The notes: generated from the sequence alone by a model not told the origin. A stretch of 64,000 nt of DNA from an uncultured Oscillospiraceae bacterium (GCA_964418245.1 CAYQKW010000003.1:2977-66976), one strand, 5' to 3'. Shown: positions 7,956 through 56,359, counted from the stretch's first letter. Program-made: numbers and translations.

Positions 7956-10900
7956 CTATTTTATTAAAATTGTATCAACAATTTTAATCACTTCGCCGCG
8001 CGTTGCACATCCAAAAGGTTTTATTCCCTCGCCGTCGCCATGTATAAGTCCGCTGTTCCACGCACGGTTTAATGCATTGTAGCACCGATATGTTGCAGAT
8101 GTCAAATCCATCGGCGGTTCCGACGCACCATTCCCTTCCGGAACCATTTCCGCATAATCTGCCATAGCCATAATGCACGTTATCATATCTTCCCTTGTCA
8201 TAAAGCTGTTCGGGTTGAAATTTTCCGTTATATAAGCCGGGAGAATATTATTTTTAATTACATAATCGACTTCGTCCGAATATTCTTCGGATATATCCGT
8301 CTCAGATTTTTTAAGTTTTATAACTCGTGTAACGATTTTAATCATTTCATCGTAAGTGATATTATCGTCCGGACGAACATTTGCATTGCCGTCGCCTTTT
8401 ATTATTCCGACTGCCGCAAGATGTGCCGCATAATCTCTCACCCAATGATTCACGGTATCCGCAAAAATTACGTTATCCGGATTGTTATCCGATACCGTAA
8501 CATCGAACTCAAACGGTTCCATATCCGCAGCGGTATAAACCGTAAGTTTATAATCGCCCGCCATTTTTGACGTATCTATATCCAGATTATAAGTATAATC
8601 ATCGTTTATACCGGTTGTGAAAATTTCACTCTTTCCGTTTTCTCCGAGTATTTTCACAAACATCTTTTCAACATATTCAAACGGCATAAGTCCGCTTATG
8701 TTTATCATTCCGGTTTCTTCGTTATACTCGGTTTCGCAAGTCATGTCGCTTAAGAGATATTTTATAACACTCTGACCGAGCCATGTTGCACCGTTCACGG
8801 TTGTCATCGGAATATAAAGCATTCCGCTTTCTTCGTTCCAAACAGAGCCTGCCGCTTCCATTTTCTCATTAATACCGAAATTCACCGTTATATACTTTTG
8901 TTCCGGATTTTGCATAACCACTTCATATCCGCTGGCGATTTTACGCACCATTATCATACACGGTCTGTCTACACTGATTTTTTTGGAATCGCCAAATTCC
9001 AGTTCGCCCGCTTTTCTGAATACCGCCTGAAGAACTTCGCATTCGGGATGATAAACCGCCTGTACTTCGGTGTCGTTACGCAATATCTGGACTTTCGGTG
9101 CTTTTGCATATTCCGCAACATATTCCATGTTTTCGCCCGGAACCAAAATATATGTGTATGTACCGCCTTTTGGATTTGTTCCGTGTTCTATACCGGCACT
9201 GAACACTTCTTTTGTTACATACGGTTCTCTTTCGTCGCCTATTCTTAAGCCGTTACCTGTTTGACTTTTGTTTGCAAACGAAATTGTTTGTTCTCCGGGT
9301 GTGATATATCCTATATTATCATGATATACCCATTCCGCATTTTCCACCGTAAGTTTTGTTTCCTTTTCAAGCGTTTTAACTTCGCCGCCCACACTGTAGC
9401 TAACATCACCGTCAAGATTACATTGGTTCATGGAAGTATACAGCGGATTTGCCGAAACACTTTTTATTCCGGCACCGAGTGCCACCACTTCGTCATCGAA
9501 AAAGAAATATGATTTTTTTGCATCAACTTCGCCGTATGTATCGGAGTAGTCCGATGCCGCAAAGCCGTATTCTCCGTCCGAGGCAACGCCGTGGAAGCTG
9601 TTATATCCGTAGTTTATGTTATTTCCGTATGCGTTTGTCGGTAATTCCGGTACGTTATCGTCCGACTGAACGGCGGTAAGTCCCGGTATTCTGTCCCAAT
9701 CCCACACTTTCGGCACGTCTATATATTCTTGTCCGTCGGTGAAAATTGCAAGTCCGTTACCCATATAATATTGGTTGTTTCCGTCCAAATTCAATTTTTC
9801 ACTTCTGAGCAAACGATTTGACGTACTTTTGCTTGAAGCATAGAATTTTTCACGGTGATGCGACATGAAATCACTGTTCCAATATGCCTTGTTACCCGTT
9901 ACATAACTGTGTGATTTTTCTGTATCGTTTAAAACGGCATCTCTCAATGCGATGAGTTCGTCACGTCTGGGCATTGTGGGTTCTTCGAGTAATCCGTTTA
10001 TGTAATATACAAGATATTGTTCACGTGTTCCGTTTCCTCTTTCCAAAGTACGACCAAGCGACCAAAATTCGGCTCCCTCACCTCTTCTTGACCATGCAAA
10101 GGAATCAAGCACCATATCTGCCAAAACCTGAAGTTTTTCCACCGGTGCGGCAAATTCCGTTCCGGCAGCATATTTCAATATAGGCAATACACCGTTCATC
10201 CACTGGTTGCCGTATCCTCTCAAATAAAGCATTTCCCCGTGTGCCAAATATGTGCCGTCCGGATATATTCCTTGTCCCATATAATGGCTTTTGTCCTGTC
10301 TGTCCAATATTGGCGATGCACTTTCGCCGTCCTCATAACTCGCAATACCGTCACCATAGGTTTTCCAATCGTTTGTACATTCTTCAAACATCATTCTGAG
10401 CGTATCTTCTTCGTTATATATAGCCGCAATATACCGCCACATTGTTGCCGTAACCGTTATGTTGTTGTTTGCTGTACAGAATCGATATGCTCCGTTTTCA
10501 CGTTCTTCCCATTTTCTGAAATACCATTCTCTTGCTCTTGAAAGAACATTGCTCGGAATTTCAATTCCTTCCTCCATCAATGTACATATTATTTCTCCCA
10601 GAACAGTAGGATATGCAATCCAATCGTCCCAGCCGCTGTTGCCGGCTCCGACATCGTCAAACTCCGCAAGACAAAAATACTCAAGCGATTTTCTTATTTT
10701 TTTAAGCAATTCCGCATTATGATAATTTTCCGTACTCGGTGCAACATAGCTACTCACAAGCGACGACAAACGTGCCAGGTGCGTTGCTCTGCCCTGCGGT
10801 TCCGCATAGTTTACATCTGAAAACGTGCCGTTATCCTGCAACAGTTTAACAAATTCCGGGTCATATGTTTTTACATAATAAGTATTACCGGCGGAATTTA

Positions 10901-11024
10901 CATACGACTGCCACACATCGGCTCTGATACGCTGTGAAATAATCTCCACATCGCTTTCCGCAAAAACCGGAACTGCGGACAAACACATTAATACCGTCAG
11001 CAATAATCCTATAATTTTTTTCAC
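7956..11024 (-). CDS. secreted polysaccharide lyase family 8-like enzyme with three C-terminal SLH cell-wall anchoring repeats
   Basis: Start set to GTG 11024 (GGAGG 9 nt upstream; signal peptide VKKIIGLLLTVLMCLSAVPVFAES). The ORF-track extension to 11090 overlaps the upstream gene. PL8 catalytic His/Tyr block YPDGTYLAHGEMLYLRGYGNQW (His-x8-Tyr-Gly as in hyaluronate, chondroitin AC and xanthan lyases) plus WDWDRIPGLTAVQ. C-terminal SLH repeats start at FADTVNHWVRDYAAHLAAVGIIKGDG and DLTSATYRCYNALNRAWNSGLIHGDG. Confidence 0.8.
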   Translation of the reverse strand: MKKIIGLLLTVLMCLSAVPVFAESDVEIISQRIRADVWQSYVNSAGNTYYVKTYDPEFVKLLQDNGTFSDVNYAEPQGRATHLARLSSLVSSYVAPSTENYHNAELLKKIRKSLEYFCLAEFDDVGAGNSGWDDWIAYPTVLGEIICTLMEEGIEIPSNVLSRAREWYFRKWEERENGAYRFCTANNNITVTATMWRYIAAIYNEEDTLRMMFEECTNDWKTYGDGIASYEDGESASPILDRQDKSHYMGQGIYPDGTYLAHGEMLYLRGYGNQWMNGVLPILKYAAGTEFAAPVEKLQVLADMVLDSFAWSRRGEGAEFWSLGRTLERGNGTREQYLVYYINGLLEEPTMPRRDELIALRDAVLNDTEKSHSYVTGNKAYWNSDFMSHHREKFYASSKSTSNRLLRSEKLNLDGNNQYYMGNGLAIFTDGQEYIDVPKVWDWDRIPGLTAVQSDDNVPELPTNAYGNNINYGYNSFHGVASDGEYGFAASDYSDTYGEVDAKKSYFFFDDEVVALGAGIKSVSANPLYTSMNQCNLDGDVSYSVGGEVKTLEKETKLTVENAEWVYHDNIGYITPGEQTISFANKSQTGNGLRIGDEREPYVTKEVFSAGIEHGTNPKGGTYTYILVPGENMEYVAEYAKAPKVQILRNDTEVQAVYHPECEVLQAVFRKAGELEFGDSKKISVDRPCMIMVRKIASGYEVVMQNPEQKYITVNFGINEKMEAAGSVWNEESGMLYIPMTTVNGATWLGQSVIKYLLSDMTCETEYNEETGMINISGLMPFEYVEKMFVKILGENGKSEIFTTGINDDYTYNLDIDTSKMAGDYKLTVYTAADMEPFEFDVTVSDNNPDNVIFADTVNHWVRDYAAHLAAVGIIKGDGNANVRPDDNITYDEMIKIVTRVIKLKKSETDISEEYSDEVDYVIKNNILPAYITENFNPNSFMTREDMITCIMAMADYAEMVPEGNGASEPPMDLTSATYRCYNALNRAWNSGLIHGDGEGIKPFGCATRGEVIKIVDTILIK

Positions 11025-11025
11025 G

Positions 11026-12285
11026 TTAATATACCTCCGTTCCCTCAATAGCTCCGTTCGATATATCCGCCGTAAACGCCGCATATGCAAGACTTAAATC
11101 TCCGTCGAACACAAACACTTTGATTTTTCCGCTCTGCGGTATGTTTTCCGTAAGCGTTATTTCTTTTGCCGTATCGTACGCAAGTTCTTCTTTGATTGAT
11201 TTTACATCCGCAAGCATACCGTCGGAATTATAGGTACACACAGTAAACACTGCCGTACGGTTTTCCGGCCAGCTGCTCGTGATATTGATTTTGCCGTCGG
11301 CACTTATATCACCGAATTTATACAGCGGTTGATTTTTTGTGAAGAAGCTTATATCCTCCGCATCATATTTAAGGCTGCCGTCCTCCGACAAAAGCCCGGT
11401 CATCACAACAATGTAATTTCTGCCGTATTCCAACTCATTTTCAGGCACAACGGTTACGTTTTTGCCCTCTGCCGAAACAGCTGCAGAAACAACTTCATCA
11501 TTGTCTTTTTTCAATATTACATTTGTTTTTGCACTTTCCGCATCAACAGTGTGCGAAAATTCCAGTTTTATTTCTTCCGTGTTTTGCGGAATTACATCTC
11601 CGGATTTAACGCTTGAATCCTTAACCGTAATTCTGTCCATTACATATGTTCTGTAATGTCCCATATATGCAACATCGGCATTATCCACAGAATTGTTCTG
11701 CCCGTTTTTGATTTCCAGCCAAGTTCTCACATTTTCCACACTTGTGGTATCATTCGGTTTTGTTTTGGTTTGAATTTCTCCGTCAATATACAGTTCGTGA
11801 GGTTTTATGCCGGAAACTTTGCTACCTGCGATAGTTGTGTTTTCCATATCCAGTACATAAGTTATTCTGTGCCATTCGTTCTGCGTGATTGAAATTGCAC
11901 CGTAACCGGTTACGGTTATCGCATTTCCGTTATATGTAATTGTGTTGTTTTCAAAAATTCTGAGAGGTGCGATGAGTTTTTTTGTTCCTTTAAGCGTGAA
12001 ATCCAAAACAATATATTTTTCATTCGCATAACTTTTAAGTGACGTTCCGTCAAAACACGGATGTTTTGAATTTCGGCTCGTATCGAAAACCGCTGTATCT
12101 TCCTCAAAAATCGGCAATTGCTGCCAAGACTTTGTCGGCTTGTCGTTTTCCGCCTCGGTAAAACTCCAGTTATCTATGTAATATGCCACCGGGAACAGTT
12201 CCGTATCATCATCCGCAACCTCTGCGTATACCATACCCGTACATAACATTACCGCTATTATAATTATCGAAAAAATCTTTTTCAA
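11026..12285 (-). CDS. secreted protein: one jelly-roll-like domain + Ig-like domain + shared C-terminal module; function unknown
   Basis: TTG start overlapping the upstream stop (TTGA), with AAGGATGG RBS. Signal peptide MKKIFSIIIIAVMLCTGMVYAE. Domain with YYIDNWSF ... AYMGHYRTY (aa 29-216) matches the repeats in the two upstream genes. The Ig-like segment resembles SbsA-type domains. The C-terminus (FTVCTYNSDGMLADVKS...KIKVFVFDG) matches the module at the ends of three other proteins. Confidence 0.7.
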   Translation of the reverse strand: MKKIFSIIIIAVMLCTGMVYAEVADDDTELFPVAYYIDNWSFTEAENDKPTKSWQQLPIFEEDTAVFDTSRNSKHPCFDGTSLKSYANEKYIVLDFTLKGTKKLIAPLRIFENNTITYNGNAITVTGYGAISITQNEWHRITYVLDMENTTIAGSKVSGIKPHELYIDGEIQTKTKPNDTTSVENVRTWLEIKNGQNNSVDNADVAYMGHYRTYVMDRITVKDSSVKSGDVIPQNTEEIKLEFSHTVDAESAKTNVILKKDNDEVVSAAVSAEGKNVTVVPENELEYGRNYIVVMTGLLSEDGSLKYDAEDISFFTKNQPLYKFGDISADGKINITSSWPENRTAVFTVCTYNSDGMLADVKSIKEELAYDTAKEITLTENIPQSGKIKVFVFDGDLSLAYAAFTADISNGAIEGTEVY

Positions 12286-15200
12286 CTTATACCATCCTTT
12301 CCTTTTGGAAAAATAACCGATGCCGTTCTCGGAAGATTATGATTTCCATCGCTCCACACAAACATTTTTATGCTGCACGAAGAATTGATTGCTTCCGCTT
12401 TCGGAATTTTAACATTTATATCGGCAGCCGTTTTGCCTTGCAGCGTATATTTATTTTCCGTTACGCTTAACAATTTTCCGCTTTTATCATACACTGCCGT
12501 ATATAGTTTTATATTTTCGCCGTTATCGCTGTATAATTTTATTTCGGCTTCCATATTGCCGCCGCAAAGTTCGGAAATTAAATTCCCGTCATCATTCCTC
12601 ACGGAAAGCGGATATACGGCAATATCCGTTCCCGTTTCCGTATATACATCCGTAACGCTTTGTCCGGCATAAAGTCCCGTTCGGTTTGTAACGGTTGTTT
12701 CGCTCATGCCGTTTTCTTCGTTATACGTCATATTATTCAATCTTTTATTTATTGCAAACTTAACCGAAATATTTTCGTTTTCGGGATTTTGCATCGTTAT
12801 CTGATATGCGCCGTTTATTTTTCTCACCATGACTATGCAGGGTCTATCGACGCTTATTTTTAATCCGTTTTCGGTTTCCACCGTGCCGTTTTCATAGAAT
12901 ACGGCTTGAAGAATATCGGATTTTTTATTGTATACTGCTTGAATTTTGCTTGTGTTCATGCAGATTTCAATATTGTTTTCGTTTTTATATTTCAAAAATT
13001 CTTCTTTTGATTTACCCGGAACCGCTATATAAGCGTAATTTCCATCATCTGACTTATTATTAATCGTCAGGCTGAATATGTTGCGTGTATAAGATTTTCC
13101 GGAAGAATGCGAAACACCGTTTCTCATTCCGTTACCTGTCTGTGCCTTATCCGATATGCAGATATTCTGACCGTTCGGCAGTATATATCCTATATTCGCA
13201 TGATGTACCCATTCAACGTTATCCGCCGTATATTCCGTTTGTTTCTCAAGCATTTTTTCTTTTCCGTTTTCTCCGTATATAACGTTTCCGTCCAATATAC
13301 TCTGATTTACGGAAGTTGCTATTTCGCCCTCGGCACCATCATCAAGTGATATTCCCGCTCCGAGTGCAACAATTTCGTCATCAAACATAAACCACGCTTT
13401 TTTTGCGTTTACACCTGTCTGTTTAACGTGATAATCCATTGCGGACACACCGTAATATCCGTCTGAAGCACCGCCCGAAAAACTTTTTTCACCGAAACAT
13501 TCGCTTTCGGAAAGCTCCGCAATTGCAGGCACATCTCCGTCCGTCTGTACCGCCGTAATACCCGGAAGTCTGTCCCAATCGAATACGGGAAGCACCTCCT
13601 CATATTCTTTGCCGGTTACATAAAGCTGAAGTTGTCCGTCCGACATATAAAAATTGTTTGTTCCGTTTTCGCCCAAAGTTTCGCTTTTTAATGTGCGGTT
13701 ACTTGTTAGTTTGACTGCCGCAAAATATCCGTCCCTGTGATGTGCCGTAATATCGCTCGTCCAATAATGGCGGTTACCTCGCACATAACTTTGCTCCTTG
13801 TTTTCCTCCAATTCCGTCAAAAGCTGTTCCAGCTCCGCTTTTCTCGGAATATTCGGTTCTTCAAGCAGATATTTGCAAAACAGTTTCAAATCCGTGCTTG
13901 CACCGTTTGTTCCTTTACCGCTCGACACAGCATTTGTGATACTTCTTTGCAGCCCCGTATATTCACTGTTTGAACCTCGCATAAGCCAGCGATAATTTTC
14001 GAGCAAAAATCCAGACATCTGCGAAAGTTCCTCTGCCGTGAACTGCCTTTGCGTTCCTACGGCATATTTTATGTATCTGCAAGTTCCGCCCAGCATAAGC
14101 TGTCTGCCGTATCCAAATGTATAATGCATGGGACCGTGTTCAATATAACTCCAATCGGGATAGAGTCCGCTGCCGAAATAGCTTTTACCACGCACTTCGG
14201 TATATCCCGTTTCATTATCTTCAACACCGTATTCTCCGCCGTCCGTATGGTTATATGTGCCTTTTAACACATTATCGTAAATCAAATCAATATATTTTGT
14301 ATCGTCAAACACAATTGCAAGATATTGCCATATTGATGCTGTTGTGGAACAATTTGAAAGTGCATAACAAAATGTTTTTGCATTGCCGTCCGCCCTGTGG
14401 CACAAGTCGAACCAATATGTATCGGCTTCATACAATATATCTTTTGGAATATCCACACCCGAAATAACAAGATAATACATTGATTGTGCCAACTGCGACG
14501 GTACGTTCATCCAAAGGTCCCAACCGCCGGATGTTCCCACAGTGTTTATTTTATATTCTTTACTTGCAAAAAACCTTAATGCTTCAAGTGTCTTTTCAAG
14601 CAATGTTTCATCTTTGAAAAAAAACGATTTTTCGTATGCATAAGCTCTGCTCATCTCTGCCGTGCGTGTTATATGTGTCATTCTGTCCACAGCCGATGTG
14701 TAATTCAAATCCGAAAACGTTCCGTCCGCAGATACGCTGCCGATATATTCGGAAACAGCCGTATCATCGGAAGAATTCGGTTTTAAATCTTCTTTTATTC
14801 GTTCAAGTATTATTCTTTTATCCGCTTCAAGTTTTGCCGCCGTTTCGGCATCCGTTTTAACCGGAGGTTCTGCCGCAAGCGGAAGATAAATACGCAGATA
14901 ATCCATATACATTTCAACTGTGCCTGCCGTTGAATGATTCTGTACTATAATCATTTTGCGGTTATTGTTGAACATGGCACTGTCCATTTCCTTATTCAGC
15001 TTATATTCCGTATTGTTTATTGTGATTGATTTTATAAGTTTTTCGCCCAAATTCATTTTGACTTTTATATCATACCACATATTTTCTTCAACGGCATATC
15101 CAGTGTTGCTTATTGTTGCCGCAGAGTTTCCGCTGCTCGGAGTTATTGCGAAAAGCGTCATGAAATATTCCGTTGCAAGTCCCAATCCGCCGGTAAACTT

Positions 15201-16673: not shown

Positions 16674-16695
16674 GGGCGGACAGGGTCGTCCGCCC
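16674..16695. repeat. GC-rich hairpin repeat, copy 2 (same element, oriented on the minus strand)
   Basis: GGGCGGAC-AGGGTC-GTCCGCCC on +, which is GGGCGGAC-GACCCT-GTCCGCCC on -. Lies in the 96-nt gap between the 962-aa and 1447-aa genes. Confidence 0.7.
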
Positions 16696-25969: not shown

Positions 25970-26863
25970 TTATCCTTTTACCGCGCCTATCATTACGCCC
26001 TTTGCAAAATATTTCTGTATGAACGGATATATGCAAAGTATCGGAACCATCGCTATAACAACCGCCGCCATTTGTGCGTTCTGCGGATTTATGTTAAGAC
26101 TTCTCATCATTTCGGAAACCGCGTCGTCCCCGAACTGTGCTTCGTTGAGCTGACCCATAACAACTATTTTTCTGAGCAGCATTTGAAGCGGATATTTTGA
26201 CGGGTCGTTCAAATACATTGATGCGTTGAACCAGCTGTTCCATATTTCCACTATTTTGAAAAGCCCATAAGTTGCGATTACCGGTTTTGAAAGCGGCATT
26301 ATAATTTTTAACCACACCGTGAAATCGTTTGCTCCGTCTATGCTTGCCGATTCTCTGAGTTCTTTCGGTATTCCGCAGAAAAAGCTTCTGAATACAAAAA
26401 CGTTGTAAGCACTTATGGCGCCCGGCAATACCATTGCCCATATCGTATCGAAAATGCCGAGTTTCTGATACATGATATACGTCGGAATTATACCGCCGCT
26501 TAAAAACATTGTTATAAGCACAAACACAGATATTCCTTTTCGCAGTACAAAATCGTTAATCGACAATGTATAACTGAGCATTGAAGTTCCGATAAGCATT
26601 ATCAGCGTACCGACAACAACATAAACTATTGTGTTTTTATATGCCACAAGAAAATCCGCATCTTTCATCATGAGTTTGTATCCGTTTATGTTAAACCCTT
26701 TCGGATACCATGTTACTTTACCGCCCGTTATCATGTCGTTGCTGCTGAAAGACGTTGCGACAACGTTGAGCATCGGGTAAAGCATTATAACAATCATAAA
26801 CAGCGTTATAAGTATAATAACCGCATCCGCTATCCTATCGGAAAGTTTTGTTTTTATCTTCAT
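25970..26863 (-). CDS. carbohydrate ABC transporter permease (LplC/MalG-like)
   Basis: 297 aa, six predicted TM segments. EAA-loop-like region ESASIDGANDFTVWLKIIMPLSKP. GGAGG RBS. Confidence 0.85.
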   Translation of the reverse strand: MKIKTKLSDRIADAVIILITLFMIVIMLYPMLNVVATSFSSNDMITGGKVTWYPKGFNINGYKLMMKDADFLVAYKNTIVYVVVGTLIMLIGTSMLSYTLSINDFVLRKGISVFVLITMFLSGGIIPTYIMYQKLGIFDTIWAMVLPGAISAYNVFVFRSFFCGIPKELRESASIDGANDFTVWLKIIMPLSKPVIATYGLFKIVEIWNSWFNASMYLNDPSKYPLQMLLRKIVVMGQLNEAQFGDDAVSEMMRSLNINPQNAQMAAVVIAMVPILCIYPFIQKYFAKGVMIGAVKG

Positions 26864-27847: not shown

Positions 27848-27911
27848 TCCTTTCCTGAGTAATCGGTTCAACAAAGGGGAAGCCCCATTATTCAACTTTA
27901 ATCATATAATG

Positions 27912-27941
27912 ATTATATCATACCCTTGTTATCATTGTCAA
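27912..27941 (-). promoter_or_regulatory. sigma-A promoter of the locus A transporter/surface-protein operon
   Basis: Minus strand: TTGACA (27941-27936), 18-nt spacer, TATAAT (27917-27912), with an extended -10 TG (TGATATAAT). Lies directly after the regulator gene terminator. Consensus match only. Confidence 0.5.
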
Positions 27942-36204: not shown

Positions 36205-36244
36205 CAAAAACCTTTGTATGTATCTATCAGGATTCAATCTGTTT

Positions 36245-40707: not shown

Positions 40708-40718
40708 TTTTCTTCTCC

Positions 40719-44615: not shown

Positions 44616-44625
44616 ATTCTGCCCC

Positions 44626-47256: not shown

Positions 47257-50200
47257 TATTCCTCCACTAATATTTTATCTACCAAACGTTTTACAATTAC
47301 CGCCATCTGTGCCCGTGTTATATTCTCTTGCGGTGCAAAATATTCCTCGGAAACTCCGTTCATAAGTTCATACTTTACACAGGCATTGACATATTCCACC
47401 GCCCACGGAGAAACCAAATCCATATCCTTAAAATCTGCTGACGGTGCCGCTTTTGTGAGCGGAGGAATCTGAATATAATAAAGTTCCGTTATAATTTTTG
47501 CCGCCTGTTCTCTCAAAACAACATCATAAGGATTAAATTTGCCGTCGAAACCGGATATAACGCCGGCACTTGCGGCTTTTGCCACCTCGGAATAAAACCA
47601 ATCTTTTTCCGAAACATCCGTGAAATTGCATTCATTATTGCCCGACACCTCAAACGTACGCATAAGCACCGCCGTAAATTCTGCCTTTGTAACGGCTCTT
47701 TCGGGTTCATATTTATTGTCACCCGTTCCGTTCAAAACACCCAATTTGTAAAGACGTTCTATGCTTTCACGTGCCCAATGCCCGTCAATATCCGCGAATA
47801 CCGCCGCAGTCTGCACAGCCTTGTTGTTTGTTTTATAATCTCCCGTCACGGTAACGTTGCTATTAACATATCCGCCACCGCCGCCACCGCCGCCGGATGA
47901 CGATGAACCGCCGCTTCTGCCGTTCACATAAACGGCATCACTTAAAACAGGATTGCCCGTTTTCGGTTCAGCTTCACAGCAGGGTGTGACTTCAAATTTG
48001 AAATACTTCCCGTAATCGGATGGTTGCAGAACATAGCTTCTTCCGGTTTCTGCTTTTATTTCTTCAAAGTTTCCGTTTGAAGAAGAACGATACCATTTAT
48101 AAGTTGAATTTTTCTCACCGCTACCGTTTGCGTGTGAATATTTATATTCACCGACAAGACTGCTGCCGTCGGCACTGATTTTTGCCGTGACATCGGTTGC
48201 GCCGGGAATATCCCGAACAAACAAAGGACTTCCCGTAACCGCTATTCCGGTTTTTGGGTCTGTTACGCTCACCGGAGTTATTTCAAACGCAATATATCTG
48301 TCGGCATCGTTTTTCGTCAGTGTGTAAGTCACTTTATCTGCCGCAGATGTCACTCCGTTCTTCAAAACCGTGCTGTCTGACATATCGGCATTTTTCGATG
48401 ATAGGATTCTGTATTCGGAATCTCCCTCAATATCATCGTTTACATCTTCGTATATATATGTAAATTCAAGCGTTTCGCCGGTATAAACTTTCCCCTCTGT
48501 TTTTATTCCGTAAGCATACGGTGCGGATGGTTTTGCGGTTTCAACAGGACCTATAACCGAACTCACAGCCTTTGTAAAGCATTCGTTTTCTTTGTTTTGT
48601 GCAAGTACCGTCACACGCAGATATTTGCCGAGACAATCTTTAAGAATTGTAATATCCTTTGAATTTACACCTTCAATGACGGTATATTCTCCGTCTGCCG
48701 TGTCGGCTTTTTCCCAAATATAAGTATACGCGGCATCGGCATTATTCGATGAATCCTTTTCATATTCCGCACTTATGACAGAACCTGCCGAAATTTCTCC
48801 GGAGATTGTGGGTTTGGAAACAATCGGACTTGTTTTCGAGGAGTTTAACAGTCTTATCTCATAAATCGACGCACTGTCAAATTCGGCAAAAACAGTATAT
48901 TTTATTTTAAAATATCTTGCCGAAACAGTATTGAATTTGTGTGAAAATGTTTTGTCATTCCATTGCGATGCAGATTCGGATTCCGTTTCGTCAAGTGTTT
49001 CCCAATTCAGTTTATCCGCGGAACATAAAATTGAATACTTTTCAAATCTTTCTCCCATTGAATCGAACTCAAGCATATTTATCTGTGCCGTGTTTCCCAA
49101 ATCAATATTTATATAACCGTTTTTAGAGTTACCTGCCCATCGTGTATCGGATTTGCCGTCAAACATAAGTTCAGCACCGTAACCCGAAAGCGAACTGTCT
49201 GCTTCGGCGGCCGCACCGAGTGCGATATTTTCATTTTCCTTAACCGGACCGAAAACAGCTGTTTCAACCGCCGAACCATCTGCGAAATTTGTTTCCGCTT
49301 TTATGTACATACCTTTGACTTCGGAATTAAGAAGAATGTTGCCGCCCTGTGCAAACTCCGTAAATTCACCGTCTGCGGACAATGATTTTTTCCAAACGGC
49401 TTTTTCAAGCATGGTGTCGGAATTATGAGAAATCGCCGCTCTTTGCGAAACCATCGGCGTGCCTGTGATTTCTGCCTTTAACGGAGGACGCTCACACGTA
49501 TTTAAATCAATTGCTGTCTCTTCAAGCATTCGTCCGTCGGTATCATATATATTACTCAATTTCAAAATATAATCCGTTTCGTAGTTTAAGCGTTCCGAAA
49601 AATTTATTCTCAAAACATTTTCGCTTATAATATAAGTGAAAGGAACCTCTTGTGTTTCGTGCATAATCGAAATACAATCATTCGAGAAGCGTTCCGTGTC
49701 AATCGCATTTGAAAAATTAACCGTGAATGAATCTACCTCTGCATTTTCGGTTTCGGATGTGGAGCTGATGCTCATGGGATAATATGTTTCAATCTTTATA
49801 TCATCCAAATAATAATCGTAACCGTTTTTTCCGCCCGTCATCATACGCACGAACATAAATCCGCCTTTAACCTCATTCGGAAAACCGATAGGCTCGGCAT
49901 TAATTTTAACGCCGTCAAGTTCCACGTCGAACGTTTTATCTGTATTCCTTATAATCACCTTATATTTATAAGATTTATCATTTTCAATTTTAACACCCAA
50001 GGAAACACTTTTTTGAGTGGCGGATTCCTGATAGCAAAGATTTCCGTTCTGATCTATAAAGAAGAAATTGAGATTTCCCTCTTCAAACCGAACGTTAAAC
50101 AGCGGACAGCTTTTGCGAAAAGGCATTGATTCTGTTGCATTTTCATTTTTTATTCTGAATTCGTAGCTTATTTCCGCAATAGTTCCGGATGTGAAGCCTT

Positions 50201-50495
50201 TCTGAATAAAAGGCCATAAAACTTCGTCGGAAGAAGACGGACCTGTTATGCCGACATGAAAACATTTGTCATTTTCGTCATCTCTGCCGGGATTTTTTAT
50301 AAAATCATATGCGGCAACCGTGGTTTTTGAAGTATCGTTATAATTCATAATTACCCAGTCGGCAAACGGATTTTCTTCGTTGAATGTAACATTTGCCACT
50401 TCCGCCGCAAAAACTGCGGAGGAAGTCAGCAAAATTATTACGCACATAACCAACGGAACAAACAAATATTTTTTCTTATAATATAAATTTCCCAT
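47256..50495 (-). CDS. secreted surface protein: jelly-roll-like domain + Ig-like domains + F5/8 type C domain + Y-x-W beta-repeats + poly-Gly/Ser linker + three C-terminal SLH repeats
   Basis: Signal peptide, AAAGGAGAG RBS. N-domain ends GYDYYLDDIKIETYY. Discoidin signature LMFDGKSDTRWAG...YINIDLG. Linker SGGSSSSGGGGGGGG. SLH repeats FADIDGHWARESIERLYKLGVLNGTGDNKYEP, FTDVSEKDWFYSEVAKAASAGVISGFDGKFNP and FKDMDLVSPWAVEYVNACVKYELMNGVS. Confidence 0.75.
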   Translation of the reverse strand: MGNLYYKKKYLFVPLVMCVIILLTSSAVFAAEVANVTFNEENPFADWVIMNYNDTSKTTVAAYDFIKNPGRDDENDKCFHVGITGPSSSDEVLWPFIQKGFTSGTIAEISYEFRIKNENATESMPFRKSCPLFNVRFEEGNLNFFFIDQNGNLCYQESATQKSVSLGVKIENDKSYKYKVIIRNTDKTFDVELDGVKINAEPIGFPNEVKGGFMFVRMMTGGKNGYDYYLDDIKIETYYPMSISSTSETENAEVDSFTVNFSNAIDTERFSNDCISIMHETQEVPFTYIISENVLRINFSERLNYETDYILKLSNIYDTDGRMLEETAIDLNTCERPPLKAEITGTPMVSQRAAISHNSDTMLEKAVWKKSLSADGEFTEFAQGGNILLNSEVKGMYIKAETNFADGSAVETAVFGPVKENENIALGAAAEADSSLSGYGAELMFDGKSDTRWAGNSKNGYINIDLGNTAQINMLEFDSMGERFEKYSILCSADKLNWETLDETESESASQWNDKTFSHKFNTVSARYFKIKYTVFAEFDSASIYEIRLLNSSKTSPIVSKPTISGEISAGSVISAEYEKDSSNNADAAYTYIWEKADTADGEYTVIEGVNSKDITILKDCLGKYLRVTVLAQNKENECFTKAVSSVIGPVETAKPSAPYAYGIKTEGKVYTGETLEFTYIYEDVNDDIEGDSEYRILSSKNADMSDSTVLKNGVTSAADKVTYTLTKNDADRYIAFEITPVSVTDPKTGIAVTGSPLFVRDIPGATDVTAKISADGSSLVGEYKYSHANGSGEKNSTYKWYRSSSNGNFEEIKAETGRSYVLQPSDYGKYFKFEVTPCCEAEPKTGNPVLSDAVYVNGRSGGSSSSGGGGGGGGYVNSNVTVTGDYKTNNKAVQTAAVFADIDGHWARESIERLYKLGVLNGTGDNKYEPERAVTKAEFTAVLMRTFEVSGNNECNFTDVSEKDWFYSEVAKAASAGVISGFDGKFNPYDVVLREQAAKIITELYYIQIPPLTKAAPSADFKDMDLVSPWAVEYVNACVKYELMNGVSEEYFAPQENITRAQMAVIVKRLVDKILVEE

Positions 50496-50520: not shown

Positions 50521-52125
50521 TTATCTGTTTTTGTTATATGTTTCCTTTATGTATTCATAATCGCCTATCTGTTTCATTCCGTCTATAAACGAATCCCACT
50601 CGGACATACTTTTTGTACCGGTTATAAATGAAAATACATTTTCATTTGTATAAGTCCAAAGAGCGGTAACCATTGTTGCCGTTTCTTCGGTTTCTTCGGC
50701 GGAGAGATTTACCGGAGGTTTGTTGTCGTTGGGGTTTACGGATGCCTCTCCCTCTGCGTCTGACGTAAACTGATAATAGTTTTCTTTCTGCCAGCTTCCG
50801 TCTTTATACACAGGAACAGGTGCAAGCAGTTTTGTTGCACTGTCGTTATCACTCGGCATAAACTGTATTCCGCATTTAACACTCTGCGACTGATTTACCC
50901 CGTATTCGGCGAGTTTGAGCTGAGGATTGTCGGAATTTTTGATTTCATCGGTGTAATCTCTGTTTCCGTTCTCATCTTTTGTGAAAGTAACGCCCTCAAC
51001 ACCCCAGTTTGCAAGTTCAATCATTTTGTCGGAATACTGATAATCCAAAAGTTTAACTATAAGGTCTGGGTGTTTTGCTTTTGTGCTTACAGCCGTCATA
51101 TAGACAACGTTCAAACTCTTGCCCTTTACATTTGAAGATGATTTCCACGAAACTTCGTTATAAAGATTTTTGGGTTCTGAGATAATTCCCCATTCAACCC
51201 CGGAATCTTTTGTATTTATGTATTGATTAATTCTTATACCCATGAAGGCCGGAGACATGAAACATTTTCCGTTAAGCATTTTCTGCATTGCCTGGTCGGT
51301 ACTCTGCGTTAAAAATTCCGGGTCAAGCAGGCCTTCTGCATAAAGTTTTCTCAAATATTCAACCGTTTCTTTAAATCTTTTTTCATCATCAACCGGACCG
51401 TATACATATTCTTTTCCGTTATAGTAGATATTCGGATGAGTATGATTGAGTCCGAAGAAATAAAGTATAAAGTTTGCCGGGTCTCTCAAATAGCTTATGG
51501 GATAGCTGTCGGGATATTTTTCTTTTAAAGTTTTTGCTGCTTCATAATATTCCTGAAGTGTTTCGGGAATTTTTATTCCTTCTTTTTCAAAAATATCTTT
51601 ACGAATGGCATTTACCGCCTGTGTTCCCGTATTATTTCCTATACTTGAATTTAAAAATGCATAAATTTCTCCGTCTTTGGTTTCAATTCTGCTTCTTTCA
51701 TTGTCTGTATTCAGAAATTCGGAATAGTACGGAATATTATCTTTATATTTGTTAATATCAACAAGAAGTCCTGCCTTTCCGAGCTGCATTGCATTGTTTA
51801 CAGGGTCGGCTATAATGACGAAAACATCGGCAAAGTCGCCGGAAGCAAGATATACCTGCTGTTTCTGATTATAGTCATTACTGTTCTGCTCCTGCCAGTC
51901 TATATTGAGTTTTATACCCATATAGTCTTCCATATACTCCTGCCACTTGTCTTGAGCAAGTGTACCGAGCGGAGACTGTGAAAATATCGGGTTATAAACC
52001 GAAAAAGAAAGTTCGTCAACGTTTCCCGAAACCTCCGCATCTTTTTTACCGCATCCGCAAAGCGAGCTTGCCGCAACCGTTATCGCCGCCGTTACGGCGA
52101 TACCTTTTAACATTTTTTTGTTCAT
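50521..52125 (-). CDS. ABC transporter extracellular solute-binding lipoprotein (large LplA-type), paralog of 24315-25931
   Basis: Lipobox ASSLCGCGKK. 534 aa. Alignable by eye with the locus A SBP (FSVYN...SQSPLGT, YPDSYPI, KLLDYxYSDxMIELAxWGVEGVT). Confidence 0.85.
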   Translation of the reverse strand: MNKKMLKGIAVTAAITVAASSLCGCGKKDAEVSGNVDELSFSVYNPIFSQSPLGTLAQDKWQEYMEDYMGIKLNIDWQEQNSNDYNQKQQVYLASGDFADVFVIIADPVNNAMQLGKAGLLVDINKYKDNIPYYSEFLNTDNERSRIETKDGEIYAFLNSSIGNNTGTQAVNAIRKDIFEKEGIKIPETLQEYYEAAKTLKEKYPDSYPISYLRDPANFILYFFGLNHTHPNIYYNGKEYVYGPVDDEKRFKETVEYLRKLYAEGLLDPEFLTQSTDQAMQKMLNGKCFMSPAFMGIRINQYINTKDSGVEWGIISEPKNLYNEVSWKSSSNVKGKSLNVVYMTAVSTKAKHPDLIVKLLDYQYSDKMIELANWGVEGVTFTKDENGNRDYTDEIKNSDNPQLKLAEYGVNQSQSVKCGIQFMPSDNDSATKLLAPVPVYKDGSWQKENYYQFTSDAEGEASVNPNDNKPPVNLSAEETEETATMVTALWTYTNENVFSFITGTKSMSEWDSFIDGMKQIGDYEYIKETYNKNR

Positions 52126-52179: not shown

Positions 52180-53085
52180 TTATTCTTTAACACTGCCGAG
52201 CATAACGCCTTTTACAAAATATTTCTGCAAAAACGGATACACGCACAATATCGGAATCATTGCCACCATTACCGAAGCCATCTGTACATTTTTGGGATGG
52301 ACATTCAGACTTTCCATCATGCTTGACATTTGACTGTCGGCATATGCACCTCCTCGTACATCATCATTTATCACGATTTTACGTAAAATCATCTGAAGCG
52401 GATAACGTTTTTCGTCATTCAGATACATAAGTGCGTTAAACCAGCTGTTCCAATGACCTACAATAACAAAAAGACCTATTGTACACAAAACCGGAAGCGA
52501 CACGGGAACATATATTCGGAAGCAAACAAGAAAATCATTTGCTCCGTCAAGCTGTGCCGATTCGCGAAGCGACGGAGATATTCCTTTGAAAAATGTTCGG
52601 CAGATAAAAAGGTTATATGCCGTAACGCATCCCGGAAGCACCATAACCCAAAGCGTATCAAGAAGATGAAGACCTTTTATGACAAGATACGTCGGGATGA
52701 GACCTCCGTTAAAAATCATTGTAAAAACCAAAAGTCTGTTAAATACTTTATTCAGCACAAAACCGTTAATTGCCATTGCATAGGCGGCAAGAATTGTAAA
52801 AAGCAATGATATTGCCGTCCCCACCACAGCATAAACTATTGTATTTTTGTATGCCGTAAAGATTTCGCTGTTTGTCAATACCGTCTTATAGCTGTTAATG
52901 TTGAATCCTATCGGATACCACGACACCTCACCCGATGTTATTGCCTCCGACGAACTTAGTGATACCGCAAGAACGTTTAAAATCGGATAAAGCATCACAA
53001 TCATGATAAAAATCATAAATATGCAGTTAAACCAATCGAAAAACATTCCTCCGATGCCTTCGTGTTTTTTTATGTATTTTTTCAT
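52180..53085 (-). CDS. carbohydrate ABC transporter permease (LplC-like)
   Basis: Start set to ATG 53085 (MKKYIKKHEG; AAGGAGGGG RBS). EAA-like region ESAQLDGANDFLVCFRIYVPVSLP. Confidence 0.85.
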   Translation of the reverse strand: MKKYIKKHEGIGGMFFDWFNCIFMIFIMIVMLYPILNVLAVSLSSSEAITSGEVSWYPIGFNINSYKTVLTNSEIFTAYKNTIVYAVVGTAISLLFTILAAYAMAINGFVLNKVFNRLLVFTMIFNGGLIPTYLVIKGLHLLDTLWVMVLPGCVTAYNLFICRTFFKGISPSLRESAQLDGANDFLVCFRIYVPVSLPVLCTIGLFVIVGHWNSWFNALMYLNDEKRYPLQMILRKIVINDDVRGGAYADSQMSSMMESLNVHPKNVQMASVMVAMIPILCVYPFLQKYFVKGVMLGSVKE

Positions 53086-53098
53086 TTGCAACCCCTCC

Positions 53099-53998
53099 TT
53101 AGAACAGCGAAGTATCGGAACATTTCTTTGAAACATAATTTGCAGCGCATATAAATATCATTGAAATAACCGAAGTAAACAGCCCGACCGCCGTTGTGTA
53201 GCTGTAGTTACCGTATTCAATACCCTCTCTGTAGGTATATGTTCCGAATATATCCGCAACCGAAAAGGTTGTCGGACTGTATAAGAGCAGAGCTTTTTGA
53301 TAATCACTGTTTAAAACCTGACCCACACTCATTATAAATGTTATGCATATTGTGGGAATCATTGCCGGAAGCGTAACGTGGAGCAGTTTTTTGAAACGCC
53401 CGGCTCCGTCAATCGTCGCCGCCTCGTAGAGCGTAACATCAACACCGGAAAGTGCCGCAAGATATATAATCGTTCCCCAGCCTATTCCCTGCCACATACT
53501 CGACCCCACAAAAATAGTTCTGTACCATTCCGGCAGAGCGAGAAAATTGATTTTCCCAAGTCCGAAAGACTCAATCATTCCGTTGACTATTCCGTCAAGC
53601 GAAAGAAACTGTTTTAAAATCCCCACAACTATAACTGTTGATATAAAATACGGAAGATATGTAACCGTTTGAATTACTTTTTTAAAGCGTTGATTTTTAA
53701 TTTCATTAAGCATAAGTGCCAAAACTATGGTTGCCGGAAAATTAATTATAAGTGCATAAAAACCAAGCAGAAATGTGTTTTTAAACAATCTGTAAAAAAA
53801 CGGCCCCGTGAAAAATTTTACAAACCACTTCAGCCCCACCCAATTTGCGGCCCAAATTGAACCGAATTTATAATTTTTAAATGCAATTACAACCCCGAAC
53901 ATCGGGAAGATGTTGAAAAGAAGCAAAATAATAAATGCGGGCAAAAGCATCAGTGTCAAACATTTATGCTTTGCTATGTTCTTAAAAAATGATTTCAT
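53099..53998 (-). CDS. carbohydrate ABC transporter permease (LplB-like)
   Basis: LFNIFPMFGVVIAFKNY and EAATIDGAGRFKKLLHVTLP. GGAGG RBS 7 nt upstream. Confidence 0.85.
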   Translation of the reverse strand: MKSFFKNIAKHKCLTLMLLPAFIILLLFNIFPMFGVVIAFKNYKFGSIWAANWVGLKWFVKFFTGPFFYRLFKNTFLLGFYALIINFPATIVLALMLNEIKNQRFKKVIQTVTYLPYFISTVIVVGILKQFLSLDGIVNGMIESFGLGKINFLALPEWYRTIFVGSSMWQGIGWGTIIYLAALSGVDVTLYEAATIDGAGRFKKLLHVTLPAMIPTICITFIMSVGQVLNSDYQKALLLYSPTTFSVADIFGTYTYREGIEYGNYSYTTAVGLFTSVISMIFICAANYVSKKCSDTSLF

Positions 53999-54045: not shown

Positions 54046-54075
54046 ATCATACCATACGGCAGGCTTATTTGTCAA
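54046..54075 (-). promoter_or_regulatory. sigma-A promoter of the locus B transporter/surface-protein operon
   Basis: Minus strand: TTGACA (54075-54070), 18-nt spacer, TATGAT (54051-54046), with extended -10 TG (TGGTATGAT). Same position relative to regulator, terminator and permease as in locus A. Confidence 0.5.
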
Positions 54076-54162: not shown

Positions 54163-54194
54163 AAAGAAAGCGGAACGACAAAGTGTCGTTCCGC
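54163..54194 (-). terminator. Rho-independent terminator after the locus B regulator gene
   Basis: Minus strand: GCGGAACGAC-ACTTT-GTCGTTCCGC (10-bp stem) followed by TTTCTTT. Confidence 0.65.
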
Positions 54195-54247: not shown

Positions 54248-56359
54248 TTAATCAAACTTTTGTTTGAACTGGCTTGGTGTTTCGCCCGTATATTTTTTGA
54301 AGTTTCGGTTGAACGTATTCACCGAATCGAAACCAACCATTTGAGCAACATCTGAAATCTTTATATTTTTTTTGCCTTTCAAAATTTCCTTTGCTTTTTC
54401 GATTTTTGCATTGCTTATATAAGTTGAAATATTAAGTCCGCTCATCTTTTTAAAATACGAAGAAAGATATTCGGGAGTAATTTTCAGGCTGTAGGCAATT
54501 GAATTAACCGTCAGACATTTATCCGTATTTGAATTTACATATTCCAGAATTGCCTCATACATACTGTTTCTTGAAGTATTTTTAAAGCATCGCGCAACTT
54601 TCAGGTAGCAACCGCTGACATATTTGTGGATATTTTCGACACTTATATTTTCATCGTCGATTTTATAGTCCATTTCAATATTATTTGTATCGGTAACTTC
54701 CCTTAAAATACTCATGAGATGCGAATATACGCGTTTGAAATTCTCATAGCTCATTGCCTCGAATTTTCCGAAAAGATATTGTTCGAAAAATTCGGTAATC
54801 TTTTCTTCATCGCCTTTCAGGACAGAATTGATTACTTCGTGTTCTTTTTCCCACGGAATTGAAAATTTGGCTTTAAACTCCAGATTTTTATATTCCAAAA
54901 CACTGTTGTTCAAAAGTTCCGGAACAGGGCATTTGTATAAAACCTGCGAACTTTCGGTATATGCTATGTTAAGCATACTTATATCGCCGTACACTTCGCT
55001 TATTCCCATAATCAATTCTTTTTCCGCATTAAACTTCTTTACCATACGCAAAAGGAACTCTGCCAATTTTGCTCTGTTTTCGCAACATACAACATACTTT
55101 TTGCTTTTGGTATCTGTAAATATTTTCTCGATATAATAATTTTCGGAAATTATCTCTTCAAATATCTCAAGCGAACCGAAACCGCTGCTCATAAGAACAT
55201 ACAAAGCAACATATTCGGGAAATTTTTGAGAAAGCTTATCAAGCATTTTGGTATCAATCCCCTGTTTTTCTCCGTGCATAAGCTTGAGCAATGCCTGACC
55301 CTCGTAAAGCCTTTCGTTGCGTTCTATCACATCTTGCATGGCACTGTTGTTTTTCTTTAAATGTTCAAATGCCGACTGAATCACATTAATTTCATTTTTC
55401 CCGTTTTCGTAAGAATTGAAATTCAACGCCATTTTTCTGATAGGGATATACGTTATATACTGTATGGCAACAGCAAAAAAATTTATGAAAAGGAAAAGAA
55501 TTACACTCAACCACGTATATGTGTTTACGTAATTTGCTATTTTTTCATATTGGTTGTTATTGCAGATATATGTAAATGTGAGCGGTTTTCCGTAAAATTC
55601 ACAATTTGACGTTACAATTCCATATTTTTTGCCGTCGGTATTTTTATAAATATCCTCGCCATTTTGAAAAATCTTTTTATAATCAAGCGAATTTGGCAGG
55701 TTTTTTGAAGAAGCGATAAGTTCTTCATCGAAAAATATTGCAAATCCGCCGTCATCCTCTTTATCGGACGCTTCAAGAAACGATATAAACGTATCTTTTG
55801 AAGCGGTAAAGTAAAAGCTCATATCCGACGCCGTATTGTTCACATAAAGAATCGAGTCGGCAAAAGGATAAAATCCCGTTTCAAGCTTTTCAAGCTCAAT
55901 TATTTCAGAAGATGAAAAATACGAAGAATTTCCGGAAGAAACATTGAAATACTCGCTGTCAACATTTCCGTTTTCGTTTATCACAATTCCGTTATTTTTC
56001 AAATATATATTCATGCTTGTGCCATAATCGAAAGATGTTGCGATAAAAGACAACTGATTCTTCAGACTGCGTATATTTTCAATCTGTGCCGTAGAATTTT
56101 TCGGGAATCTTTTTACATTTGTTACCTCTGCCGTATTAAGCGTAATCGTTCCCAGATTTTTTATTCTGTCAACTTCGACAAAAAATCTGTTTTGAAATTC
56201 CGTAAGCAATGTTTTGTAATTGTATGACGTTCGTTTATTGAGTTCATACTTTATATAAAAATTGTTAAACACCAAAAAAATAATAATACAAACAGAAACA
56301 ACCGCATTTATTATTATGATTTTATTGACTATACTCTTGTCCTTCAAAAACTTAAACAT
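54248..56359 (-). CDS. membrane-spanning AraC-family one-component regulator, paralog of 28154-30343
   Basis: TM segments IIIINAVVSVCIIIFLVFNNFYI (aa ~13-36) and YTWLSVILFLFINFFAVAIQYITYI (aa ~271-295). C-terminal AraC HTH (LTVNSIAYSLKITPEYLSSYFKK...DVAQMVGFDSVNTFNRNFKKYTGETPSQFK). Confidence 0.75.
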   Translation of the reverse strand: MFKFLKDKSIVNKIIIINAVVSVCIIIFLVFNNFYIKYELNKRTSYNYKTLLTEFQNRFFVEVDRIKNLGTITLNTAEVTNVKRFPKNSTAQIENIRSLKNQLSFIATSFDYGTSMNIYLKNNGIVINENGNVDSEYFNVSSGNSSYFSSSEIIELEKLETGFYPFADSILYVNNTASDMSFYFTASKDTFISFLEASDKEDDGGFAIFFDEELIASSKNLPNSLDYKKIFQNGEDIYKNTDGKKYGIVTSNCEFYGKPLTFTYICNNNQYEKIANYVNTYTWLSVILFLFINFFAVAIQYITYIPIRKMALNFNSYENGKNEINVIQSAFEHLKKNNSAMQDVIERNERLYEGQALLKLMHGEKQGIDTKMLDKLSQKFPEYVALYVLMSSGFGSLEIFEEIISENYYIEKIFTDTKSKKYVVCCENRAKLAEFLLRMVKKFNAEKELIMGISEVYGDISMLNIAYTESSQVLYKCPVPELLNNSVLEYKNLEFKAKFSIPWEKEHEVINSVLKGDEEKITEFFEQYLFGKFEAMSYENFKRVYSHLMSILREVTDTNNIEMDYKIDDENISVENIHKYVSGCYLKVARCFKNTSRNSMYEAILEYVNSNTDKCLTVNSIAYSLKITPEYLSSYFKKMSGLNISTYISNAKIEKAKEILKGKKNIKISDVAQMVGFDSVNTFNRNFKKYTGETPSQFKQKFD

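Follow-up and report, generated by a model that had tools for sequence, protein, structure and literature searches.

A 64,000-nt stretch of DNA from an uncultured Oscillospiraceae bacterium (GCA_964418245.1 CAYQKW010000003.1:2977-66976), referred to as the window, carries two long gene clusters, locus A (7956-32139) and locus B (36245-56359), which were analysed as candidate Gram-positive polysaccharide utilisation loci (gpPULs). Each cluster combines a membrane-spanning AraC-type regulator, an ATP-binding cassette (ABC) importer, one or two polysaccharide lyases and a pair of secreted proteins with S-layer homology (SLH) domains. Domain content was determined for all 20 proteins of both loci. 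Every open reading frame (ORF) lies on the minus strand, with the coordinates and sizes given by a sequence-only reading of the window, and the ORF and Pfam check confirmed the gene order and strand common to A and B as well as the two operon lengths which that reading had reported. Listed in gene order, with Pfam assignments, and with helix-turn-helix abbreviated as HTH and substrate-binding protein as SBP, locus A contains the following.

30343-32139, minus strand: GH29 alpha-L-fucosidase, 598 aa (Alpha_L_fucos, E 8e-79), first gene of the locus
28154-30343, minus strand: regulator, 729 aa, two transmembrane (TM) spans around a ~250-aa outside region, C-terminal AraC HTH
28110-28148, minus strand: intrinsic terminator 3' of the regulator gene, 16-bp stem followed by a T run
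27912-27941, minus strand: operon promoter, TTGACA-18-TATAAT with TG extension, 12/12 consensus matches
26879-27895, minus strand: permease 1 (BPD_transp_1), 55% identical to the 299-aa permease of locus B
25970-26863, minus strand: permease 2 (BPD_transp_1), 55% identical to the 318-aa permease of locus B
24315-25931, minus strand: lipoprotein SBP, 538 aa (SBP_bac_1 and SBP_bac_8), LTGCGG lipobox
22395-24302, minus strand: secreted 635-aa SLH protein, N-terminal region lacking an assignment, Gly/Ser linker, three C-terminal SLH repeats
19674-22391, minus strand: secreted 905-aa protein, N-terminal SLH trimer and ~720-aa all-beta body, member of a large unnamed family
16722-19610, minus strand: secreted 962-aa protein lacking SLH, four ~205-aa modules (jackhmmer), no Pfam, NCBIfam or PDB match
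16674-16695, minus strand: GC-rich hairpin lacking a coding-strand T tract, placed in the 96-nt gap that separates the 962- and 1447-aa genes
12282-16625, minus strand: 1447-aa PL8 lyase lacking SLH (Lyase_8_N, Lyase_8, Lyase_8_C), three N-terminal modules of the locus A type (residues 30-576)
11026-12285, minus strand: secreted 419-aa protein, one locus A module and Big_5
7956-11090, minus strand: 1044-aa PL8 lyase (Lyase_8_N, Lyase_8, Lyase_8_C) with C-terminal SLH, two Pfam SLH stretches
7905-7949, minus strand: long hairpin just past the last stop codon, read from the sequence

Locus B was resolved into the following features.

54248-56359, minus strand: regulator, 703 aa, two TM spans and C-terminal AraC HTH (HTH_18)
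54170-54194, minus strand: intrinsic terminator 3' of the regulator gene, 11-bp stem with 7 GC pairs
54046-54075, minus strand: operon promoter, TTGACA-18-TATGAT with TG extension
53099-53998, minus strand: permease 1 (BPD_transp_1)
52180-53136, minus strand: permease 2 (BPD_transp_1)
50521-52125, minus strand: lipoprotein SBP, 534 aa (SBP_bac_1, E 5e-25), LCGCG lipobox
47256-50495, minus strand: secreted 1079-aa protein, Big_5, F5/8 type C, AIR9-Ig, Gly/Ser linker, three C-terminal SLH repeats
44626-47256, minus strand: secreted 876-aa protein, degenerate N-terminal SLH (one stretch, E 5e-5) and all-beta body, same family as the 905-aa protein
40719-44687, minus strand: 1322-aa lyase lacking SLH, two F5/8 type C, Ig, Cu_amine_oxidN1-like, Hepar_II_III_N and Hepar_II_III_C
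39199-40722, minus strand: secreted 507-aa protein, N-terminus lacking an assignment, Cu_amine_oxidN1, F5/8 type C
36245-39172, minus strand: secreted 975-aa near-orphan, three tandem ~275-aa units, each a jelly-roll plus three helices
36173-36205, minus strand: strong intrinsic terminator closing the locus, 15-bp stem of which 8 pairs are GC, followed by a T run

From the promoter to the last stop codon, the operon measures 19,986 nt in locus A and 17,831 nt in locus B; intergenic gaps do not exceed 96 nt in either locus, several genes overlap, and about half of each long operon encodes non-catalytic protein. The genes previously listed for locus A are all present, but the cytoplasmic GH29 gene (30343-32139) had been left out. 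The TM-AraC regulators, the lipoprotein SBPs, the Gly/Ser linkers and the VIYR ends of the 905- and 876-aa proteins were all found. Besides the TM spans of the regulators and the lipoboxes of the SBPs, signal peptides were detected on all other products of both loci bar the fucosidase. Dockerins, cohesins, LPXTG anchors and a two-component system had been described as absent, and indeed none of the proteins of either locus gave a match to a dockerin, a cohesin, an LPXTG anchor, a histidine kinase or a receiver domain; the last two were not found near either locus. No match to a TonB-dependent receptor, SusC or SusD was obtained by Pfam among the proteins of the window. The statement that the non-catalytic proteins consist of unassignable domains stood only in part: F5/8 type C (CBM32-like), Big_5, AIR9-Ig and Cu_amine_oxidN1 domains could be assigned, whereas the bodies of the 905-, 876-, 962- and 975-aa proteins were left without a Pfam match.

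HTH_18 was matched with E-values of 2e-20 and 1e-16 in the two regulators, both of which thus carry the C-terminal double HTH of the AraC/XylS type. In the locus A regulator this domain covers residues 641-720 and the hydrophobic spans lie at residues 16-34 and 287-305; the corresponding spans of the locus B regulator lie at 8-26 and 280-298. Promoters and post-regulator terminators were located exactly at the places named before. No convincing internal terminator was found on the coding strand of either locus, and internal promoter- and terminator-like matches were not more frequent than in shuffled sequence. The hairpin at 7905-7949 is likely a terminator with a weak T tail. The stem of the hairpin at 16674-16695 is a perfect 8 bp (GGGCGGAC/GTCCGCCC) and could represent an RNA processing, stabilising or attenuation site.

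Some of the start codons called may need adjustment. The TTG start of the 338-aa permease (26879-27895) lies 17 nt from the -10 box, and the true start is probably further downstream. For the 1044- and 1322-aa ORFs, plausible signal-peptide starts are present ~22-25 codons further in, probably near VKKIIGLL in the 1044-aa PL8 protein and at the internal MKKSIL in the 1322-aa lyase; with these starts, the apparent overlaps of 62-65 nt vanish.

Both loci encode two permeases and a lipoprotein SBP, the composition of a CUT1-type (LplABC-like) importer. Within this transporter class, the use of a shared ATPase is known. The ATPase serving both importers is presumed to be encoded elsewhere and shared.

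The lyase families differ between the loci, PL8-like twice in A and heparinase II/III-like in B, as the sequence-only reading had stated and as Pfam confirmed. In the 1044- and 1447-aa proteins, the complete three-domain PL8 architecture was recovered with all domains above the Pfam cut-offs. For both, the best match was the chondroitinase AC of Pedobacter heparinus (1HM2, E ~1e-68; E 7e-69 for the 1447-aa protein), with xanthan, mannuronate and hyaluronate lyases following at much weaker scores. Residues H284, Y293, R347 and E431 of the 1044-aa protein align with H225, Y234, R288 and E371 of 1HM2, which we take to be the catalytic residues of chondroitinase AC, and the residue alignment placed the same tetrad at H830, Y839, R894 and E982 in the 1447-aa protein. 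The 1322-aa protein of locus B matched Hepar_II_III_N with 54.1 bits and Hepar_II_III_C with 44.4 bits (cut-offs 22 and 24, respectively), and the Bacteroides heparinase III 5JMD with an E-value of 8e-11. The end of the GH29 gene overlaps the start codon of the locus A regulator gene, an arrangement repeated in the orthologous locus L002 (loci sampled from other contigs are given by L numbers). As the N-terminus of the GH29 protein has no hydrophobic leader or signal peptide, the enzyme would act on imported oligosaccharides. Judged from these enzyme families, the target of locus A is likely a PL8-cleaved polymer of the chondroitin/hyaluronan kind, possibly fucosylated, and that of locus B a polymer cleaved by a heparinase II/III-type lyase.

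Directly downstream of each SBP gene lie the two SLH genes. In both the 635- and the 1079-aa protein, Pfam recognised the tandem SLH repeats as three stretches (E 1e-35 in the 635-aa protein, preceded by the linker GGGSGGGSGGGSGGGS); in the 905-aa protein, the model superposes on the whole SLH trimer of SpaA. An AlphaFold (AF2) model of the 905-aa protein built from 74 sequences (predicted local distance difference test, pLDDT, 80.6) consists of the SLH trimer and, behind it, a string of small beta domains. Foldseek returned strong matches to the SLH domains of SpaA and Sap (TM ~0.7-0.8) and weak small-barrel matches for the rest; no enzyme-like fold and no (alpha/alpha) toroid, beta-helix or TIM barrel was found by this search. 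The 876-, 962- and 975-aa proteins gave no match in a PDB sequence search, in which the 905-aa protein matched via its SLH region only, and for none of the four was anything obtained from NCBIfam or, outside SLH, from Pfam. Genes for CsaB or a pyruvylated secondary cell-wall polymer are not encoded in the window. The VIYR end was considered as a sorting signal and rejected, as most family members examined end in a hydrophobic C-terminal strand (VIIK, VIVK), of which VIYR is the locus-specific form.

A C-terminal SLH protein (~490-1080 aa) adjoining, on the same strand, a member of the 905/876 family (~865-1075 aa) was found in nine loci. The neighbours are PL8 lyases and an ABC importer in locus A and in L002, and a heparinase II/III-like lyase and an ABC importer in locus B and in L007. 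In the others they are heparinase II-type lyases and a binding protein (L003), GH141 and pectate-lyase-like proteins (L005), GH20 and very large DSE-like proteins (L009), Golvesin_C, Hepar_II_III_C and beta-helix proteins (L010), or an ABC importer and a 1345-aa SLH protein (L091). A tenth locus, L064, encodes a membrane-type AraC regulator, an SBP, two permeases, GH20, a family member and a heparinase II/III lyase of 1959 aa whose C-terminus carries SLH. The C-terminal SLH partners of A, L002, L003, L005, L009 and L010 are related beyond the SLH repeats, and the 1079-aa protein of locus B is not; for the 635-aa protein, relatedness to the partners of L002, L003 and L010 was direct and that to L005 and L009 ran via those.

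The relation between A and B was analysed by BLASTP of the counterpart proteins. The regulators are 25% identical over 520 aa, well past the HTH, the permeases are 55% and the SBPs 42% identical, and the 905- and 876-aa proteins share 25% identity over 613 aa, well past SLH. Similarity between the 635- and 1079-aa proteins is confined to SLH, and no match was obtained between the 962- and 975-aa proteins. The expectation that all counterparts would be related thus held for the regulators, permeases, SBPs and the 905/876 pair, but not for the 635- and 1079-aa proteins outside their SLH repeats. If orthologs are set aside, the regulator and transporter genes of A find their best matches within the sampled loci in those of B, and vice versa, whereas the 905-aa protein is closer to an 865-aa protein of L003 than to the 876-aa protein. 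We infer that A and B share an old regulator-importer cassette and its layout. The duplicated scaffold proposed for the two loci accordingly applies to the regulator and transporter genes and not to the SLH and downstream proteins; a recent whole-locus duplication was rejected, the 905- and 876-aa proteins not being each other's closest relatives. L002 is an ortholog of locus A with the same order, GH29 included. L007 is an ortholog of the downstream part of locus B, from a 1080-aa SLH protein through a homologue of the 975-aa protein, and its ortholog of the 876-aa protein (L007_866) is 50% identical. Lyase operons of like overall plan recur in L002, L007 and L064.

The three properties that define a gpPUL in Roseburia and Eubacterium rectale (Sheridan et al. 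2016; PMC5320581), a degradative enzyme, a linked carbohydrate transporter and a linked regulator, are all present in both loci, the enzymes being two PL8 lyases and GH29 in A and the heparinase II/III-like lyase in B. The region probably represents two independent gpPULs in the genome of a spore-forming member of the Bacillota. In the mechanism proposed, the outside ~250-aa domain of the regulator would sense a breakdown product of the target polymer. The membrane-spanning one-component AraC regulator would then activate the strong sigma-A extended -10 promoter downstream of its own terminator. The resulting transcript of ~18-20 kb would encode the CUT1-type importer, comprising two permeases and the lipoprotein SBP, and would also supply the SLH wall proteins, the lyases and the secreted repeat proteins resembling carbohydrate-binding modules (CBMs). 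At the cell wall, the polymer would be bound and cleaved; import of the oligosaccharides would follow and, in the case of locus A, trimming by the cytoplasmic GH29 enzyme. The SLH pair would form a non-catalytic surface platform for glycan binding or spacing by which the polymer is located near the importer, and this is the most likely role of the pair. The larger protein of the pair appears to derive from a big family of S-layer-like envelope proteins. The function suggested earlier, wall-anchored capture and cleavage of uronic-acid polymers with ABC import under TM-AraC control, fits the domain evidence.

Several observations weigh against this interpretation. No gene for a GH88/GH105 unsaturated uronyl hydrolase, a sulfatase or a KduI/KduD-type enzyme was found in either locus, so that the window does not contain the whole pathway and a host glycosaminoglycan is a possible target only. 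Pfam detected an ABC ATPase gene in neither locus. The sensor region of neither regulator matches a known ligand-binding domain even at E<=5, and the first 630 aa of the locus A protein gave no Pfam match at that threshold. Internal promoter-like sites, for example at 12285-12257, together with the GC hairpin at 16674-16695, make sub-operonic transcripts possible. Finally, some members of the 905/876 family lie in clusters that lack degradative enzymes (L004, L092, L013-L042).

The loci had been proposed to represent an undescribed system, which is overstated. Besides matching the gpPUL definition, they follow a strategy established in Paenibacillus sp. JDR-2, in which multimodular enzymes with CBM and SLH domains act on xylan, beta-glucan and starch at the wall and are coupled to ABC uptake (PMC4765114). 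That study also notes related systems in Clostridium, Caldicellulosiruptor and Thermoanaerobacter and includes in its list a protein with SLH for which action on hyaluronan is predicted. New are the accessory parts: the SLH pair, the sensor domain of the regulator and the CBM-like repeat proteins. A literature search yielded no description of the SLH pair, of membrane-type AraC regulators in such loci or of the repeat proteins, the AraC matches being swamped by arachidonic-acid papers. According to a 2022 review, lyase-containing or glycosaminoglycan gpPULs in gut Firmicutes had been predicted and none characterised (PMC9067506).

Comparison with known systems was made as follows. With the gpPULs of Roseburia and E. 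rectale (PMC5320581), the loci share the clustering of enzyme, ABC transporter and AraC regulator and the lack of SusC/SusD. They differ in carrying lyases instead of glycoside hydrolases, in SLH anchoring (putative sortase signals are reported there for some enzymes, and SLH is not mentioned), in the membrane-spanning regulator and in unusually long operons that are about half non-catalytic. Wall-level cleavage and ABC uptake of the products are common to Paenibacillus JDR-2, where SLH is part of the enzyme itself; here, it resides in a separate non-catalytic gene pair, and most lyases and repeat proteins have no anchor. The glycosaminoglycan PULs of Bacteroides, with PL8, PL12, PL13 and PL15 lyases, SusC/D and a hybrid two-component sensor (PMC9067506), resemble the present loci in lyase families, surface binding proteins, an outside sensor with AraC output and coupled import. 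In contrast, the present loci have neither SusC/D nor a sulfatase or GH88, an outer membrane is not involved, an ABC system serves for import and the sensor is a single protein that lacks kinase and receiver domains.

At the level of single proteins, both locus A lyases have their best relative of solved structure in the chondroitinase AC of P. heparinus (1HM2, 1CB8; PL8), whose catalytic residues they keep. The locus A enzymes add modules, namely three N-terminal repeats in the 1447-aa and a C-terminal SLH region in the 1044-aa protein, and xanthan lyases and a mannuronate lyase are among the relatives that have a similar fold. Cellulosomes likewise have SLH-anchored non-catalytic proteins encoded beside anchorless secreted enzymes, but no cohesin or dockerin occurs in any protein here. 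Among known systems, those closest to the 905-aa protein are S-layer proteins (Sap of Bacillus anthracis, SpaA of Paenibacillus alvei), on whose SLH domains its trimer superposes; it is large, acidic and all-beta. Its body nevertheless gave no meaningful match to the assembly domains of Sap, and, set beside the acidic composition with few or no cysteines that is typical of S-layer proteins, the copies in utilisation loci are cysteine-rich.

In a first alternative, the SLH pair would have no glycan role: the 905- and 876-aa proteins, like their partners, would be common structural proteins of the S-layer or envelope, encoded in the operons by chance or serving only an envelope remodelling that lets large enzymes through. 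The family is large: the 905-aa query retrieved 248 relatives, most of those listed being ~800-950 aa long and most having N-terminal SLH. The SLH-less body alone matched 2363 representative clusters (50% identity, E<=1e-3), 1096 of them at E<=1e-10. No source-given function name was found among the relatives listed. Many members have no degradative neighbours (L004, L013-L042, L058, L062, L063, L066, L092), and no CBM was detected in the 905-aa body by Pfam or Foldseek. Some of these envelope-type members are paired divergently with a conserved 610-636-aa protein with N-terminal SLH and others form arrays of three to four paralogs. On the other hand, in ten sampled loci the family gene is closely packed, on one strand, with genes for lyases, GH20 or beta-helix enzymes or ABC proteins. 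Copies in utilisation loci are also distinct in composition. They contain 6-12 Cys residues (L002-L010, L064; 9 in the 905-aa and 10 in the 876-aa protein) against 0-2 in envelope-type members (L004, L008, L011, L013, L031, L034, L038, L040 and L058 in this comparison). Moreover, the partner in utilisation loci is a different protein family, with C-terminal SLH. A purely structural role of the pair is therefore unlikely.

The contexts of the envelope-type copies were recorded as well. In L013-L042, L058 and L071 (family gene 10001-12547), on human-gut and bioreactor contigs, a member of ~854-923 aa is divergent to the 610-636-aa protein with no degradative enzyme nearby, and the two may constitute an envelope or S-layer module of two proteins. 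Of the family genes fetched, nineteen, nearly all from human-gut assemblies, form one cluster at 90% identity. The bioreactor contig of L040 carries two adjacent 863-aa family genes (10001-15200) of like composition and with the same last 12 residues, suggesting tandem duplication. The metagenome scan was performed with a subfamily alignment (A5) and yielded mostly envelope-type copies and near-identical human-gut contigs, so that the frequency of PUL-type contexts is biased.

According to a second alternative, the SLH pair would be a substrate-induced, locus-specific offshoot of the S-layer machinery, forming a wall patch or docking platform that captures acidic polysaccharide and holds the anchorless lyases and repeat proteins. 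This proposal is considered quite unlikely; if true, the platform would be a surface complex free of cohesin and dockerin, with a role like that of SusD/E/F-type proteins in Bacteroides.

The ~205-aa module of locus A occurs four times in the 962-aa protein; the 1447-aa PL8 lyase begins with three copies and the 419-aa protein has one, and among ~90 loci it was found in locus A and its ortholog only. As it is fused to a PL8 lyase domain, the module is suggested to be a binding module. The 975-aa protein has homologues in four clusters among 5.8 billion in a word-seeded search, which retrieves only proteins with short exact words in common; the one context inspected was that of L007, the orthologous locus. 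Its repeat unit was modelled by AF2 (pLDDT 86.7; predicted TM score, pTM, 0.87) as a jelly-roll with three helices. The best Foldseek match of this unit was AziU3/U2 (E 7e-11; deposited as a Streptomyces sahachiroi complex), which we take to be biosynthetic enzymes, and further matches were Cry toxin domains, ligand-binding domains of Eph receptors, CBM6, CBM36 and CBM61. The locus-specific repeat proteins resemble CBMs, the locus B repeat being modelled as a jelly-roll. A common origin of the 962- and 975-aa proteins was rejected, with no BLAST match and a profile comparison probability of 0.9%.

Under a third alternative, the SLH pair would anchor the anchorless proteins of its operon (962, 1447 and 419 aa in A; 1322, 507 and 975 aa in B), giving a multi-enzyme complex that is free of cohesin and dockerin. 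Half of the secreted proteins have no anchor of any kind, and the three anchorless proteins of locus A all begin with the same module after the signal peptide. Two of those of locus B share Cu_amine_oxidN1 and F5/8 type C domains, and Cu_amine_oxidN1 was found, beyond the 507- and 1322-aa proteins, on large enzymes which in L007 and L009 lie beside the SLH pair; a role of this domain in surface association is conceivable. However, the shared modules could be plain CBMs, the 1044-aa lyase has its own SLH region and the 975-aa protein has no module in common with any neighbour, making this alternative very unlikely. Outside both loci, a 295-aa protein of the window (59699-60586) also has a Cu_amine_oxidN1 domain. 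That one or more of the 905-, 876-, 962- and 975-aa proteins form a new polysaccharide-degrading enzyme family, as their lack of Pfam, NCBIfam and PDB sequence matches outside SLH and the AziU3/U2 match would allow, is most improbable. In the 905-aa model, small beta domains follow one another and neither a toroid nor a beta-helix or TIM barrel is seen; the 962- and 975-aa proteins each repeat a single module in tandem, as is typical of binding proteins; and most other matches of the 975-aa unit are CBMs, toxin domains or receptor ligand-binding domains.

The surroundings of the two gpPULs were also analysed. The flanks of the window consist of housekeeping genes (RecG, germination protease, RNase III, TrkAH). 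Between the loci lie a plus-strand flippase-like gene (32342-33808; Polysacc_synt/MurJ-like, possibly of the SpoVB type) and a block of GTPase, radical SAM and RNase III genes, of which RNase III and radical SAM directly abut locus B (34370-36245). As such genes separate the two loci, these are embedded among housekeeping genes with no obvious mobile island. The GC content is even along the window, and Rfam and tRNA scans of the window found nothing. On the Hadza-gut contig of L009, the enzyme locus with the SLH pair (1528-9984) likewise lies ~1.3 kb past a PlsX-ACP-RNase III-radical SAM run. The RNase III proteins of L009 and the window are only 48% identical, and the insertion site may or may not be shared. 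The germination protease and the use of SLH suggest a spore-forming member of the Bacillota, and the occurrence of relatives in human-gut and bioreactor metagenomes suggests an anaerobic gut or digester habitat.

Surface handling of large acidic glycans is far less understood in Gram-positive gut and sediment bacteria than in the Sus model of Bacteroides. The overall strategy of the two loci is not new; what makes them valuable is their accessory parts and the prospect of discovering substrates. The wall-protein family to which the 905- and 876-aa proteins belong counts ~2,400 clusters at 50% identity; neither Pfam nor NCBIfam has a model for it, and none of the matches listed bears a source-given name. 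The membrane-spanning AraC regulator, with its sensor domain lacking an assignment, offers a further handle. The two-gene SLH cassette, finally, could mark a subclass of Gram-positive utilisation loci.

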